DNA from: an uncultured Spirochaetota bacterium
GTDB taxonomy: Bacteria; Spirochaetota; Spirochaetia; SZUA-6; DRHE01
NCBI GenBank assembly: GCA_963745745.1
Contig: CAVUYS010000017.1
Location: 17,734 to 81,733, forward strand
Reading direction: 5' to 3'
DNA length: 64,000 bases
Position numbers and translations under genes: made by a program. Positions 52,426-64,000 of this stretch are shown one piece after another. The notes beneath the pieces were generated by a model. The model was not told the DNA's origin. It worked only from the letters and a program-made list of their open reading frames with translations, and made no database searches. Numbering within the stretch: the stretch's first letter is position 1; each line of letters starts with the position of its first letter.

Positions 52426-55400
52426 TCAATGATGCCCGCATTTGTCGCCGAAAACCAGCTCCACCCAGTTGCGCCGGCCAAGCCGGGCCGCCGAAGCCGC
52501 GATGTCCTCCAGCAGCCGCTCCAGCCACGGGTTGGCCACCGCGACCAGCACCGGATCCTGGCCGCCGTCGCCCTGCCTTTCCAGATCGCAGCCCGGGCCT
52601 CCGTCCAGGTGGTCGCAGTGGCTGCCGCCGTACAGCCGGTCCGCCCCGTCCTCGCCGAACAGGGCATCCTCGTCGCGGCCGCCCAGCAGCACGTCGTTGT
52701 CAGCTCCACCGTACAACCGGTCGCGGCCTTCCTGGCCGTACAGGATGTCCGCTCCCTCCCCGCCGCCGAGCAGGTCGTCGCCGGAGCGCAGAGTGAAGTG
52801 TCCGTGGTCGCAGTCGTCCCCGCCCGGGCCATAGGGCTGCGCCTGCAGCTCGACGGAGAAGGTCGAGCACTGGTAGGCGAAAACGGGCTTCACTGCGGCG
52901 TTGTCCCCGAAGGCCACATCGTCGCCGCCCTCGCCCTCGATCCGGTCGGCGCCGCTGTGCACGTTGGCCTCCGGCGGCCGGCAGCCGCAACCGCCGCAGC
53001 AGCCATGATCGTGCTCGCCGCCGTGGAAATCGTGCCCGTAGGACGGGTCGGCATGCGCATCGCGGAGCAGGCCCGCCGCGGCGGCCAGCAGGCTGTCGGC
53101 TGCCCGGTTGAGCTCCTCGGCCTCCTGGCGGCTGTCCGGCGCCTGCTGGAGGGCCGGGAGGATCAGCAGGGCGTGGTCACCCACCAGCAGGTCGGCATCC
53201 TCCCCACCGTAGAGCTCATCGTTGCCCACGTGGTACTCGTAGCCGGGCCGGTAAACGATCAGGCGCAGGTCCTTGGCCTTCGGCAGGCCTTCGAGAAGAT
53301 CCTCGTGATCGTGCTTCAGGTGCCAGTACAGCCGGGCGTCCAGTGCCTTGTCCTGGGCGGCGAGCGCCCATTCGGTGCTCTTCAACAGGCACCAATCCAC
53401 CGCCAGCGGATCCACCGTGTGCGCGGCGCTGCCGATGACGACCGGCAGGACCAGCACCGCGCTGTCGCCGACGATGGTGTCCTCCCCCGCCCCGCCGTAG
53501 AGCCGATCGTTGCCCAGGAACAGGCTCCGCAGGGCCAGGTCGACCAGGTCCTTGTCCCGGGGCGGGTGATGGCAGGGATTGTGCGCAATCGCATCGGCGA
53601 CCAGGCCCTGCAGGACTTCCCGGTGGGCCTCGGCCAGCAGGTGCTGGAAGTCCACGGCCACGTACTCGAGGTCGCGCAGGAAGCGATGGAAGTCCAGCGC
53701 CGCCTGCTGGAACTCGCCGGCCGGGACCTCGAAGCGGACGAACCAGGGGGCCAGCAGCGCCGCCTCATCGCCCACGATGGTGTCGTTGCCCGTCCCCCCG
53801 TCGACCGTGTCGCAGCCGATCACCACCGCGGAGGGGGACTGCACCCCCAGGACGACCCGTTCGTACAGGTCGTAGTCCAGCGCTACGTGGCGCATCCAGG
53901 CCAGAAGCTCGGAAAGCTCCTCCGTGAGCTCGCCCAGCGCCCGGTCGATCTCCTTCAGCCCCGTGACCAGCGGAGAGCCCATGGTCACCGGGTCGGCGAA
54001 GATCAGGTCATCCCCTGCGTCCCCCCGCAGCAGGTCGTTCCCGGGCAGGACATCGGGGTGATGGACCACATCGGGGACCAGCTGGATGTAGGCCGAAAGC
54101 ATCGTGCCGTCGCTGCAGGACAGGCGATCGCCCAGGGCGATTTCCAGCAGCGCCGGATTGACGTCGGTGTACAGGGTGAGCTGCGGTTGGAGCGCGGCCA
54201 GCTCATCGGGGACCAGCTGCACGTCGGCCACGATCAGGGAGCCGCCGCTTTCCAGGTCGATGGGCACCGCCGCCCCGGCGGCGATGCCGATCAGGCGCAC
54301 GCCGCTCACGATCTGGGGCAGGTCGGAGGCCAGGCTCATGGTGTTGACCCCGCCGTCCCCGAAGAGCAGGTCCGCGCCGTCCCCGCCGCTGATCGTGTCG
54401 TTCCCGCGCTGGCCGAACAGGACGTCGTCGCCCTCCCCGCCGTCCAGCAGGTCGTCGTCGGCCGGCACCAGGTCGATCAGCAGGGCCTCCGTGCGCCAGG
54501 CCCCATTGTCCGGGCTGGTAGAGCGGCGCGCCGTCCGGCCCGAAGGCTCCGGCCAGCACGATCAGGTCGGCCTGGAACAGGGCCCGGGCCAGCTCCGCCA
54601 GCGGCAGGCCAAGCGGCGTGCGGTCCATGGGCAGCAGCCCGGTGAGGAAGCCCACCTCTTCGAGGAACACATCCCGGTGCCAGGAGCCGTTGGAGTTCTC
54701 AAGCGGCGTTCCGTCCCCGCTCCAGGCGCGCAGGATGAGCCCCACGTCGCCGAGGACGAAATCCCGCCCCTCCTGTCCCCACAGGCTGTCGGGGCCCAGT
54801 TCGCCGTACAGCTCGTCGTCTCCCGAGCCGCCGTACAGCGTGTCCGCCCCGCGCTGGCCGTGCAGAATGTCGTCGCCAGGGCCGCCGAGCATGGTGTCGT
54901 CACCGGCCACCCGGTCGAGGTCGTCGAAGCGGACCAGGTCGCGGATCACGTCGGCGAACGGCGCGGGATAGCGCTCCCATTCGCCCCCGGGCAGCAGGCG
55001 GCGCAAGATCGTCCCGTTGTCGCCCAGCAGCACATCGGCCCCGCTCCCGCCGTCCATGGTGTCGGAGCCGTCCGCGCCGAAGGGGACGTTGTGCCCGCCG
55101 GTCAGGTCGTCCTCGCCGTCCTCACCGCAGAGCAGGTCGTCCCCCTGCTGGCCCAGGATGAAGTCATCCCCCGCACCGCCGAAGATCGCGTCGTTGCCGC
55201 CCGCATCCGTCGGGCCGGTGTAGATCGACTGGAACCTCTGGTTGGCCGGAAGGGCCGTATCCCAGCGCCCATGGTCGCCCAGCAGGATGTCGGAGCCTTC
55301 CCCGCCCAGGATGAGGTCGGCGCCGGTCCCGCCGAACACCAGGTCATCCCCGGCGAGGGCGGAGAGGTCATCGTTGCCGCCGACCAGGGGATCCACCGAG

Positions 55401-61400: not shown

Positions 61401-64000
61401 CCCCAGCACGCCGTACACGTCCAGGGAGGTGCTGACCCCCAGCAGCTCGATGTCGGCGAACCTGGCGCTGAAGCTGCCGCCGGCGTTGAAGTGGAAGGTG
61501 GTGCCGTTGAAGGAAGCATTCAGCCAGATGTCCCCCTGCACCCCGGTGCCGGCCCCATAGGAGGGCAGGCCCACGCCGCCGGCGAAATGCAGGTCGAAGT
61601 GGCCCTGGGAGTTCAAGGAACCCCAGCCGGAGATGGACATCATGCCGAACAGACTCGCGCTCAGCTTGCCGCTTTCGGGGATGCTGATCGACCAGGCGTT
61701 GCCGGAAACCGTCACCTTGATCCGCCCGCTCAGGCTGATGGCCCAGAGCACCGTCAGGCTGCCGCGCACGTCCAGGTAGAAGGAACGGGCCGGGATGGAG
61801 ACCGCGACGCCGTCCACGTTGCGGAAGGCGACCCAGCCGGTGGGTCCGTTGAAGCCGGCCAGGGAGCGGTTGGTGGTGTTGACCTGCAGCTTGCCGTCGA
61901 AATCGAAATCGAACAAGGTCAGGAGGTTCAGGTCGAAGGAGACCGCGGCGTCCAGCACGATCCCGTCGGAGAACACCCCGACGAAGGCGGAGGCGGCGAA
62001 GGACAGGGGGCCGACGGAGAAGGTGCCGGCGAAGTACAGCTGCAGCCCCGCGGCGTCCAGGCTGACGTAGCCGGTGGCGCTGGCCTGGGCGAAATTGATG
62101 AAGTTCAGCGTGCCGCTGAAGGCCACCCGGAAGCCGGGCTGGATGCCCATCACCTCGTCCCCGGTGGTGTTGACCTCGAACCAGGCCGAGCCGCCCACCG
62201 AGAAGCCGGCGGTCTGCATGCCGGCCTGCAGCGCCAGAGTGCCGGCCACCCCGGCCCCGGAAATCGACAGGGCGCCGGTCACGGCGATCGAGCCCAGGAA
62301 GCTCAGGCCCAGGTTGGCGCGGAAGTCCATCTGGAACTCGCTCGCTGTGGCGGCCAGCCGGAAGCTGCCGCTGAACTGCCAGAAGCCGGCGATGGTGAGC
62401 TGGCCCGCGAGGGTGGCGACGAGGTAGGGGCCGGCAGGAGCGTTCGTGCCGTCCAGCAGCGGCGCCCCGGCGGCCACCGTGTAGAGCATAAGGCCCGAGC
62501 CATCGCCCGCAGCAGCGAGGCGCGCACGCGCGGTCGCGCTCAGCAGAGGCAGGAAGGCGGCGGGGATGCGCACACTTTGAGCCCCGGAGGTGGTGTTGAA
62601 TATCAACCGGGCGCTGGCGCTGAGCGAGAACAGGCCGTCCAGGACGGAATCCTCGAGGATGCTCACACTCAGGTCGAGGTCACCGGCCACCCCGGCGGGG
62701 CCGATAAGCAGCACGCCCAGGGCGTGCATTTCGAAGAACGAGCCGGAAGGCCCGAAGGACAGCTCCCCGTTGGCGAAGACCTCCAGGCCCTGCGGGCTGG
62801 CGGAGATCGAGAACACGCCGCTCACCGACAGAACGTCGAAGACCTCCATCGCTCCGCCCACGGCCAGGTAGGCGTAAGGGCCGGCGGGCAGGGCCACGTT
62901 CACGTTGTTGATGTAGGCAACCGGCTGCAGGCCGGTGTTCAGCATGAACTCGAACACGCCGCTGAAGGAGAACAGGTCCTCGGCCACGGTATCGGTGGTC
63001 AGGGAGATGCGCGCCGCGATCCCCTGCGGGCCGATCAGCAGCCCCCCGAGCGCGGACACGGACAGCAGCTCCTGGGTGGCGACCAGGACCTTCAGGTCCG
63101 CCGTGGCGCTCATCGCCAGCCCGGCCGGGCTGACCGAGAGGGTGAAGTCCCCGTCCAGCAGGAAGCCGTTTCCTCCGGCCAGCGAGAGCTGCAGGATGCC
63201 GTCCACCTGGACGCGGGCATAAGGACCGGCGGGCAGGGCGACCGCCGTCCCATCGATTGTGGGCACCGCCTGTCCAGTGGTGTTCAACTCCAGCAGGAAG
63301 GTGCCCCCCAGGGTGAAGCCGGGTCCGCTGGCCCCTCCGCCCAGGCTGAGCTTGGCGGCGATGCCGTGCGAGGTGAGCAGCATCGCCCCATCGGCCGACA
63401 CGGAGAGCAGGCTGACGCCGCCGACCACGGCCACCAGCGTGGCATCCGCGGTCACCGCAATGCCGGCGGTGCCCGGATCCAGGGCGCCGGCCTCCAGCGC
63501 GAAGGAGCCGTCCAGGCGGAAGCCCGCCACCCCGCCCAGGATCAGCTGCAGGCTGCCGTCCACGGCGAGGCGCAGGTAGGGGCCGGCCGCCAGGTCCACG
63601 TCCACCCCCGCGATCGTGGGGACTTCCGCGCTGGTGGTGTTCACCGCCAGCTGGAAGTCGCCGCTGAAAGCGAAGGTGCCGGCGGTGGCCGAGCCGGTGG
63701 AGATGTCGATCAGGCCGGCGATCCCCTGATTGCTGATCAGCAGGGCGCCTACGGCATCCAGGCTGAAGAAGCGCTGGCCGCCGATGAGCACCTCCAGGAC
63801 GGAAGTCGTGGTGACGGTCGTGTAGGCGCCCGTGGTTTCGAGGCTGAAGGAGCCGGTCATCAGGAAGCCGTAGCCCGAGACCAGCTGCAGCAGCAGCGTG
63901 CCGCCGGCCGCCACCCGCACGTACGGCCCGGCGGGCAGCTCCAGCGAGAGCACTTCGGTCTCGAGCGTGTTGACCTGCACCAGGACACTAGCCGAAAGAA
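52426..64000 (-). CDS. Giant secreted repeat protein (>3850 aa, N-terminus beyond window): N-terminal about 110-aa tandem beta-rich repeats, central and C-terminal RTX-type calcium-binding nonapeptide repeats (GGxGxDxL/I); disrupted in this sequence at about 57323 (frameshift), about 56752 (in-frame TAG) and about 54480 (frameshift)
   Basis: ORFs 57324-63980, 56753-57322, 54203-56749 and 52426-54468 are contiguous pieces with the same repeat chemistry (..[47 protein letters not shown].., ..GGEGDDVLFGQRGNDTISGGDGADLLFGDGG..). Confidence 0.8.
61900..63980. repeat. Tandem about 330-bp (about 110-aa) coding repeats in the giant adhesin gene (unit motif ..LPAGPYxRxAVDGxLQLxLxGGxGFxLDGxFxLE..)
   Basis: At least 4-5 copies recognisable in the translated ORF 57324-63980. 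Confidence 0.45.

Follow-up and report, generated by a model that had tools for sequence, protein, structure and literature searches.

How might a bacterium export a protein of several thousand residues when the secretion-type genes beside it include no ABC transporter? The question is raised by 64,000 nucleotides from an uncultured Spirochaetota bacterium (assembly GCA_963745745.1, contig CAVUYS010000017.1, positions 17,734 to 81,733), called the window here and numbered from its own first letter throughout. A giant gene with RTX repeats lies on its minus strand and runs past the window edge at 64000. Beside it stands an operon for a TolC-family outer membrane factor, HlyD-type adaptors, an adaptor fused to an M50 protease and a truncated, SecA-core ATPase. 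The giant gene very probably forms one functional unit with this ABC-less TolC/HlyD/M50/SecA-core operon. Judged from sequence and gene order, the giant is probably the cargo of the neighbouring module. Our best explanation as a whole is, on balance, probable: the visible region encodes the last 3,850 residues of one giant extracellular calcium-binding repetitive protein of about 5,000-5,500 aa in full, the protein belongs to the class with an N-terminal LEPR-XLL motif, and gene, DUF3467-like companion and convergent operon act together.

A putative export operon without an ABC transporter

The module beside the giant gene consists of the following genes.

42956..44641, minus strand: TolC-family outer membrane factor, divergent from the operon (Pfam OEP, TIGR01844)
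44613..45428, plus strand: short HlyD/RND-type periplasmic adaptor, 271 aa (Pfam, NCBIfam)
45425..47296, plus strand: GAF-HlyD adaptor, 623 aa, with a cytoplasmic GAF domain, one transmembrane segment and a periplasmic HlyD domain (profiles)
47307..49457, plus strand: M50-HlyD fusion, 716 aa, with an N-terminal PqqD-like domain resembling the recognition element (RRE) of ribosomally synthesized and post-translationally modified peptides (RiPPs), a polytopic site-2-protease domain and a periplasmic HlyD-type domain
49461..51446, plus strand: SecA-core ATPase, 661 aa, with the first nucleotide-binding domain (NBD1), the preprotein-binding domain (PPXD) and NBD2 only (Pfam, NCBIfam)
51466..52053, plus strand: signal-peptide protein of about 195 aa, last operon gene in this lineage (signal-like N-terminus)

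Operon and giant gene converge, and the stretch between them showed no promoter or terminator consensus. A sequence-only reading made earlier of this DNA had placed membrane fusion proteins, TolC, a SecA-core ATPase and an M50 adaptor beside the giant, with no HlyB-type exporter nearby. We find the same: the TolC, HlyD, GAF-HlyD, M50-HlyD and SecA-core genes are all present and intact, and the 64-kb window contains neither an ABC_membrane domain nor an HlyB-type exporter, its ABC genes belonging to uptake systems only.

That reading called the operon atypical, but it is not an unknown oddity. Kamneva, Poudel & Ward described a 'secondary SecA_DEAD' locus in 2015 (PLoS One, PMC4452313), assigned it no cargo and stated its biological role to be completely unknown; in their proposal, SecA_DEAD would act as the ATPase, with the M50 protein as membrane component. 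Their paper makes no mention of a substrate, RTX repeats, giant proteins or a leader. As here, the locus comprises a truncated SecA_DEAD, Peptidase_M50-HlyD, GAF-HlyD, HlyD/Biotin_lipoyl and sometimes OEP/TolC, and no ABC transporter; the SecA_DEAD protein of about 660 aa, with PPXD and NBD2 and without the C-terminal SecA domains, also recurs in the window. What differs is that we find LEPR-XLL giants and a DUF3467 gene adjoining it, and recognise a PqqD-like domain in M50-HlyD, which the 2015 description does not note. No other paper joining SecA_DEAD and HlyD was found in the literature searched.

The SecA-core ATPase aligns to residues 26-604 of the 841 of B. subtilis SecA. By established SecA structure, a protein whose alignment ends at 604 has no helical wing domain, no two-helix finger to enter SecY and no C-terminal tail. 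The motifs Walker A GEGKT, DEAD and TNMAGRGTDI are kept, and the length is constant across the family, at about 661 aa.

M50-HlyD conserves HExxH and the LDG-type motif NPLLRFDGY, and has at least six transmembrane segments ahead of its HlyD domain. The PqqD-like domain occupies its N-terminal ~100 residues, in the window (47307-47720) as in the orthologues; it scores above the Pfam cut-off in the orthologues of loci L003 (31.6 bits) and L089 (29.6 bits) and near the cut-off in that of L087. This leader-binding type of domain in the orthologues suggests leader-directed export. M50-HlyD also matches the daptide intramembrane protease (E 1.5e-48, below the cut-off), and GAF-HlyD weakly matches the HlyD adaptor of NHLP bacteriocin systems (E 2.4e-6).

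The ~195-aa signal-peptide protein belongs to no Pfam family. Its homologues follow the SecA-core gene in L011, L013, L051, L085, L087-L089 and L092-L095, and it may be an extra envelope component of this module sub-lineage. After TolC, on the minus strand (41662-42957), stand a gene with an FHA domain (Yop-YscD_cpl) and a DUF4432 gene; their order is conserved in L092, L093 and L095, so that the FHA protein may regulate the module.

Giants with a common N-terminus adjoin the module

We scanned metagenomes with M50-HlyD as the only anchor. More than 536 relatives were obtained and 80 loci kept; later additions brought the set to 87 and then to about 100 loci, and a scan of genome contigs with a single protein yielded two loci only. 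By offline annotation, the five-gene module appears in the same order in nearly all loci that are long enough, and very large open reading frames (ORFs) flank many of them. Its hosts include Spirochaetota, Desulfobacterota, the Planctomycetes-Verrucomicrobia-Chlamydiae (PVC) phyla, Alphaproteobacteria and others. An ABC exporter is absent from nearly all module loci examined, and an ABC ATPase adjoins homologous giants only in L007, L011 and L013.

The neighbouring giants nearly all start with F-x-LE-x-LEPR-[IL]-LLS-[AG]-D, about 10-14 residues past the start codon. A search for LExR-[ILVM]-x-x-[ST] in 87 loci, amounting to 1.3 million six-frame residues, finds a motif ORF in 28 of them, or 27 after removal of one 68-aa chance match. 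That match is the sole off-target in the entire set; in all other cases the motif lies at the N-terminus of its ORF. The LEPR ORF starts 155-306 nt after the SecA-core stop in 11 loci, and the profile NF012209 'LEPR-8K' scores above its cut-off in all five neighbours tested. Tallied over the roughly 53 loci with informative flanks, about 27 have the motif, in 8-13 more the N-terminus of a giant falls outside the view, and about 13 show no giant; a giant gene adjoins the module in roughly two thirds. The adjoining giants form several unrelated BLAST clusters, and the association is therefore not that of one inherited gene pair.

Homologues of the window giant itself stand beside the module in L003, L053, L067, L071, L085, L086 and L092-L095. 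The L085 giant, which starts with MKMGIDKKKFQLEPLESRLLLSA, aligns colinearly to the window protein (1,526 columns, 53% identity) and has about 1,600 further N-terminal residues beyond the visible start of the latter. Its locus reads, on one strand, SecA_DEAD, a small signal-peptide protein and the giant. From this colinear homologue the window giant, whose own N-terminus lies beyond 64000, would probably carry the LEPR-XLL motif. The giant gene is in itself one more member of a catalogued class.

As a reverse test, two distant homologues were chosen by similarity of their beta-meander repeats alone, regardless of context. Both (L090 and L091) have the LEPR motif, and the L090 giant, more than 11,000 aa in pieces, comes directly after SecA_DEAD. 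Cargo varies even among fairly close modules, since the convergent giants of L087 and L088, where SecA-core is 75% identical, are not BLAST-homologous to the window giant.

Many LEPR giants beside the module have few or almost no RTX repeats. What the neighbours share is the N-terminal LEPR-XLL, and thus RTX does not define the cargo; with LEPR-XLL common and RTX optional, the loci point to an N-terminal leader logic rather than to the classical C-terminal signal of type I secretion systems (T1SS). The sequence-only reading had linked giant and operon through RTX repeats and such a C-terminal signal. The functional link gains support from the recurring adjacency, whereas the signal logic does not.

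A second motif, [AGS][NSQ][GAE]PP (for example TLRSANGPP), lies 120-170 residues past LEPR in many giants (L015, L025, L055, L057, L058, L060, L063, L065, L066, L079, L085, L090 and L091). It may serve in processing or recognition.

Annotated plasmids of cultured Alphaproteobacteria

Plasmids were searched with the SecA-core protein by tblastn, and four replicons were inspected through their PGAP annotation. All four carry a LEPR-XLL giant of 8.8-12.9k aa together with the module.

Pseudosulfitobacter sp. DSM 107133 (L096, NZ_CP085155.1): LEPR-XLL giant, 38.8 kb; then HlyD, site-2 protease, SapC, 'prepilin peptidase' (the SecA-core) and adaptor
Methylosinus sp. C49: giant of 8.8k aa, N-terminus IFDTLEPRVLLNAD; then DUF3467, adaptor, 'PqqD family protein', SecA-core, adaptor and TolC
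Pontibrevibacter nitratireducens ALG8: LEPR-XLL giant of 10.6k aa; then DUF3467, adaptor, 'PqqD family peptide modification chaperone', SecA-core and adaptor
Mesorhizobium ciceri R30: giant of 10.5k aa, N-terminus HFEALEPRLLLSAD; then DUF3467, adaptors, M50-HlyD and SecA-core

TolC lies within the block in one of the four. The last ~5,000 residues of the four giants hold 17, 7, 20 and 1 strict RTX motifs; with counts that vary so widely, RTX is common but not defining.

Public genomes annotate the module inconsistently: under PGAP/RefSeq names, the SecA-core is a 'prepilin peptidase' or a 'DEAD/DEAH box helicase', and M50-HlyD a 'site-2 protease', a 'PqqD family' protein or 'hypothetical'. The SapC family gene of the Pseudosulfitobacter plasmid (18827-19648) is placed between M50-HlyD and SecA-core. 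A 2026 preprint (10.64898/2026.03.19.712371) reports that, in Chlorobium chlorochromatii, sapC and tolC flank Cag_663 and Cag_665, two giant symbiosis proteins. By analogy, these giants might use a related route, Chlorobi being among the phyla with the SecA_DEAD locus.

The giant gene and its companion

In the window, whose G+C content is about 70%, the codon-position GC signal of the minus strand is unbroken from 64000 to the TGA at 52428-52426, with two frame changes and one in-frame TAG. Once its pieces are joined, the visible 3' 11.6 kb of the giant gene amounts to 3,850 codons, described here by segment.

57462..64000, minus strand: segment A, visible residues 1-2176, joined piece 63998-57470 (open frame, GC at third codon positions, Pfam RTX); internal repeats comprise six ~115-aa beta-meander repeats, RTX block 1 (~60591-60848) and ~125-aa repeats of calcium-binding type
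56756..57461, minus strand: segment B1, visible residues 2177-2411, joined piece 57460-56756 (frame, repeats, homologues)
54515..56752, minus strand: segment B2, visible residues 2413-3149, joined piece 56752-54540 (Pfam RTX, E 7e-28)
~54749-55543, minus strand: RTX block 2, inside segment B2
52426..54511, minus strand: segment C, the C-terminal ~700 aa, joined piece 54531-52429 (Pfam RTX, E 3e-32; homologues P0001-4 and P0033); RTX beta-roll turns alternate with long helical hairpins up to the last RTX block (~52546-52764), followed by a non-RTX tail of ~55 aa
52426-52428, minus strand: TGA stop codon of the giant
52071..52421, minus strand: DUF3467-like gene, 116 aa, beginning 4 nt after the giant stop (weak Pfam DUF3467)

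From the window edge inward, the six ~115-aa repeats lead to RTX block 1 and the long ~125-aa array; three ~100-aa 'TFTL' modules, RTX block 2 and the C-terminal ~700-aa module follow. Pfam HemolysinCabind (PF00353) matches three of the four pieces (E 1.8e-13, 7.3e-28 and 3.3e-32), and strict GGxGxDxUx nonapeptides number 26 in the protein, where 300 residue shuffles average 0.34 and never exceed 3. On both grounds the RTX repeats are genuine, and the sequence-only reading was right to see here a giant RTX-repeat gene of more than 3850 aa. Fragment P0121 is 89% identical to segment A, and segment B2 has thousands of homologues among giant proteins.

The same reading called the protein an adhesin, a label for which we find no support. 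Pfam finds no Ig, bacterial Ig-like (BIg) or adhesion domain in the visible giant. An AlphaFold2 (AF2) model of the first 460 visible residues (mean pLDDT 83) predicts an uninterrupted antiparallel beta-meander with strands of 12-15 residues, not a string of BIg domains, and its best PDB matches, the ApoB100 beta-belt and outer-membrane barrels, reach TM-scores of at most 0.31.

The AF2 model of the C-terminal 701 aa has a pLDDT of 58, and its last 47 residues are of low confidence with one helix. P0002 has this tail in part (NPWLxxLL); in other homologues it is absent or replaced by extra domains. C-termini are not conserved in the family, and in some homologues LamG, dockerin or PKD domains follow the last RTX block. 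As modelled, the tail looks compatible with a T1SS-type signal, of which it is not diagnostic.

The 116-aa companion matches Pfam DUF3467 with an E-value of 0.003, below the cut-off, and shows no BLAST similarity to alphaproteobacterial DUF3467 proteins. L089 and L092-L094 have a conserved counterpart in this place, with identities of 88% in L094 and 73% in L089; this conservation exceeds that of SecA-core between the same genomes. An annotated DUF3467 gene directly follows the giant in three of the four plasmid loci. The companion may be a cargo-specific accessory or chaperone.

Three interruptions of the reading frame

The giant gene is interrupted three times, as the sequence-only reading had reported.

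57461-57460, minus strand: J1, +1 frameshift, one extra base in a CC run
56755-56753, minus strand: J2, in-frame TAG, in the linker between two homologous ~100-aa modules
54514-54512, minus strand: J3, +1 frameshift, one extra C in a CCC run

The four pieces are not separate genes: the repeat arrays run across J1 and J2, and single-frame homologues span J1 (L001), J2 (P0278 and P0318) and J3 (P0001-3, L053, L003 and L086). Across J2, P0278 aligns at 37% identity over 430 columns (E 3e-68). The close relative L094, whose DNA is 86% identical to the window in the giant gene and about 90% in the operon, has an ORF of 2,704 uninterrupted codons that matches window residues 1161-3849 in a single high-scoring segment pair at 81.5% amino acid identity. 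At the lesion sites it reads ADTVGLLSES (J1), Tyr (TAY, at the TAG) and GPNGLPLVNPDNGAW (J3).

Recoding of the TAG, as pyrrolysine or otherwise, is rejected: 8 of the 29 window genes end in TAG, no in-frame TAG occurs in the MttB/MtmB homologues and the relative has Tyr. Conserved programmed frameshifting is rejected as well: the homologues in L001, L002 and L086 are split too, but elsewhere, and intact homologues exist.

At least three ordinary window genes are also split, namely an amino-acid ABC ATPase (extra C, ~20867), a solute-binding protein (~21502) and an epimerase (~4826), whose Pfam domain is shared out between two frames. This suggests an indel-prone assembly. A frame-segmentation model gives about 9 robust candidates in the other 52 kb and 2 in the 11.6 kb of the giant. 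The related fragment P0268, 86% identical and from a different assembly, contains much frameshift noise as well. Since L094 reads through all three sites and ordinary genes carry similar frameshifts, sequence error is likelier than gene death. Both frameshifts and the TAG, private to this sequence, most likely arose as errors or very recent lesions and do not belong to the gene itself; we hold a technical origin with fairly good confidence.

Among the split ordinary genes, only the ABC ATPase site was checked at base level, where the extra C is of the same type as in the giant. Further frameshift candidates lie at ~317, 2127, 2556, 3871, 6177 and 27062, and the first 6 kb change frame repeatedly. 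In long-read-style metagenome contigs, the giant homologues (L001, L002/L085, L086, L090 and L091) are each divided into several overlapping gene calls, with different split positions. In public data, it appears, assembly indels break up giant genes systematically.

A possible export route and its relation to known systems

In the route that we propose, the LEPR-XLL leader of the unfolded giant would be recognised by the PqqD-like domain of M50-HlyD, by the PPXD of the SecA-core, or by both. The SecA-core would then push the chain at the expense of ATP, in place of an ABC transporter. Passage through the inner membrane would fall to the polytopic M50 domain, which may also cut off the leader, and the three HlyD-type adaptors and TolC would make up the outward duct. 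Once outside, the RTX repeats and the remaining calcium-binding repeats would fold upon binding calcium. Extended beyond this locus, there is about an even chance that the module is a distinct, widespread secretion system for giants of 4,000-13,000 aa with an N-terminal LEPR-XLL leader, in which the place of the ABC transporter is taken by a SecA-derived motor and an intramembrane protease that binds the leader, DUF3467 is a cargo-specific accessory and the RTX giant of the window is one cargo.

The window giant resembles HlyA with its HlyBD-TolC exporter and the RTX adhesins (LapA with LapBCE, SiiE, MpIBP) in its GGxGxDxUx repeats, its very large size and the presence of membrane fusion proteins and TolC. 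By analogy, one-step export of the unfolded chain with calcium-driven folding outside is plausible here too. The differences from type I secretion are that no ABC transporter is encoded in the 64-kb window, the ATPase derives from SecA, the signal is likely N-terminal, and there are three distinct adaptors, one of them fused to an M50 protease. Unlike the RTX adhesins, the visible giant has no detected BIg extender, retention module or LapG site and is modelled as a beta-meander.

In logic, though built from different parts, the proposed route is analogous to peptidase-containing ABC transporters (PCATs), the PqqD-like RRE of RiPP systems and the daptide M50 protease: the similarities of M50-HlyD to PqqD and M50 proteins would put a leader-binding domain and a protease within the exporter. 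In the case of the giants, however, the cargo has thousands of residues, the protease is an intramembrane M50 and not a C39 enzyme, the energy would come from a SecA-core and not from an ABC ATPase, and cleavage of the leader is a proposal.

Non-canonical SecA-type ATPases have been associated with giant proteins before, in Omnitrophota, where SecA-like domains embedded in the giants were suggested to aid their own export (West-Roberts et al. 2023, bioRxiv 10.1101/2023.11.21.568195). There the SecA-like domain is inside the giant; in the window, a TolC/HlyD operon encodes it as a protein of its own, of 661 aa.

As for the LEPR-XLL giants, a Vibrio protein of about 8,000 aa with an N-terminal LEPR-XLL and C-terminal RTX/serralysin domains is mentioned in passing in a 2024 genome paper (PMC10868602). 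The giants of this class (NF012209 'LEPR-8K') have in common with ours the size and the RTX toward the C-terminus, and the motif is found in L085 and in the module neighbours; the window protein differs in that its N-terminus lies outside the window. No published link between the LEPR-XLL domain and an export system was found in the literature searched, where the name LEPR-XLL occurs in two papers only, neither of them on secretion.

The SecA_DEAD/M50/HlyD locus has thus been an orphan since 2015, widespread across phyla and clearly secretion-like with no known substrate, and thousands of 'LEPR-XLL domain-containing' giants have had no known export route. Gene neighbourhood now connects the two in a testable hypothesis of cargo, leader, recognition domain, motor and duct. 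This link appears to be new, although the operon itself was already known. If true, extremely long polypeptides would have a new way across two membranes, and a SecA-type motor would do a second job apart from the Sec translocon; annotation would also improve for a protein that RefSeq now lists as 'prepilin peptidase' or 'DEAD/DEAH box helicase'.

Weighing the alternatives

Several points count against an export module with the giant as its cargo. The export function is inferred, and the authors of 2015 left the role of the module open; the route also asks a site-2-protease fold to pass a chain of 5,000 aa. The N-terminus of the window giant is itself out of sight, and the N-terminus of the window's own M50-HlyD reaches no PqqD score. 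About a quarter of the informative loci have no giant neighbour, the loci are not phylogenetically independent, and the LEPR giant of L091 has no module within 5 kb upstream. An ABC exporter may exist elsewhere in the genome, and RTX repeats followed by a disordered or helical tail of ~55 aa also fit a classical T1SS substrate. Finally, the lesions could be real mutations of this strain.

The main rival takes up the T1SS likeness: the giant would leave C-terminus first through an HlyB-type ABC transporter, a membrane fusion protein and TolC encoded beyond 64 kb or elsewhere, and its adjacency to the module would reflect co-regulation or chance. The RTX blocks near the C-terminus and the low-confidence tail with its single helix agree with this, ABC genes are known to be sometimes unlinked to their substrates, and only 64 kb of the genome are in view. 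Yet giant and module recur together in very divergent loci and in all four annotated plasmids, ABC ATPases adjoin homologous giants in just the three loci named above, the unconserved C-termini may bear LamG, dockerin or PKD after the last RTX block, and many module-adjoining LEPR giants are almost without RTX. We regard this rival as unlikely. The idea that the giant is a decaying pseudogene, its three interruptions being real inactivating mutations, is quite unlikely, and so is the long-dead pseudogene that the sequence-only reading had entertained. Two frameshifts and a nonsense codon do fall within 11.6 kb, and the TAG is a substitution, not the indel type found elsewhere in the window. 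Against decay, all segments have a strong and uniform GC signal by codon position, no lesion affects more than one base, L094 is undamaged at the three sites, and lesions are as dense in ordinary window genes, with the noise in P0268 showing the same trouble in another assembly. It is more improbable again that the module handles something else, such as small leader-bearing peptides, with the giant as a co-located surface partner. The daptide and NHLP resemblances of M50-HlyD and GAF-HlyD lean that way, as do the established binding of short leader peptides by PqqD domains and a site-2-protease fold not known as a protein channel; but no small precursor-like ORF recurs in the loci, where the recurring neighbours are a giant with an N-terminal motif and DUF3467, and SecA-type motors are known to work on long unfolded chains.

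Other genes of the window

On the plus strand, 33138-38474 is a run of 1,778 stop-free codons that joins an IclR-type helix-turn-helix, an MtmB-like methyltransferase and 2-oxoacid:ferredoxin oxidoreductase (POR) domains. The MtmB-like and POR parts share one frame with no stop between them, which is a fusion, a lost stop or a sequence error. Two MttB-family methyltransferase genes without in-frame TAG, hence of the non-pyrrolysine type, lie at 15492-16952 and 18140-19561 (plus strand). They adjoin uptake ABC genes, an Opp-type system at ~10-15.8 kb and an amino-acid-type system at ~19.5-23 kb.

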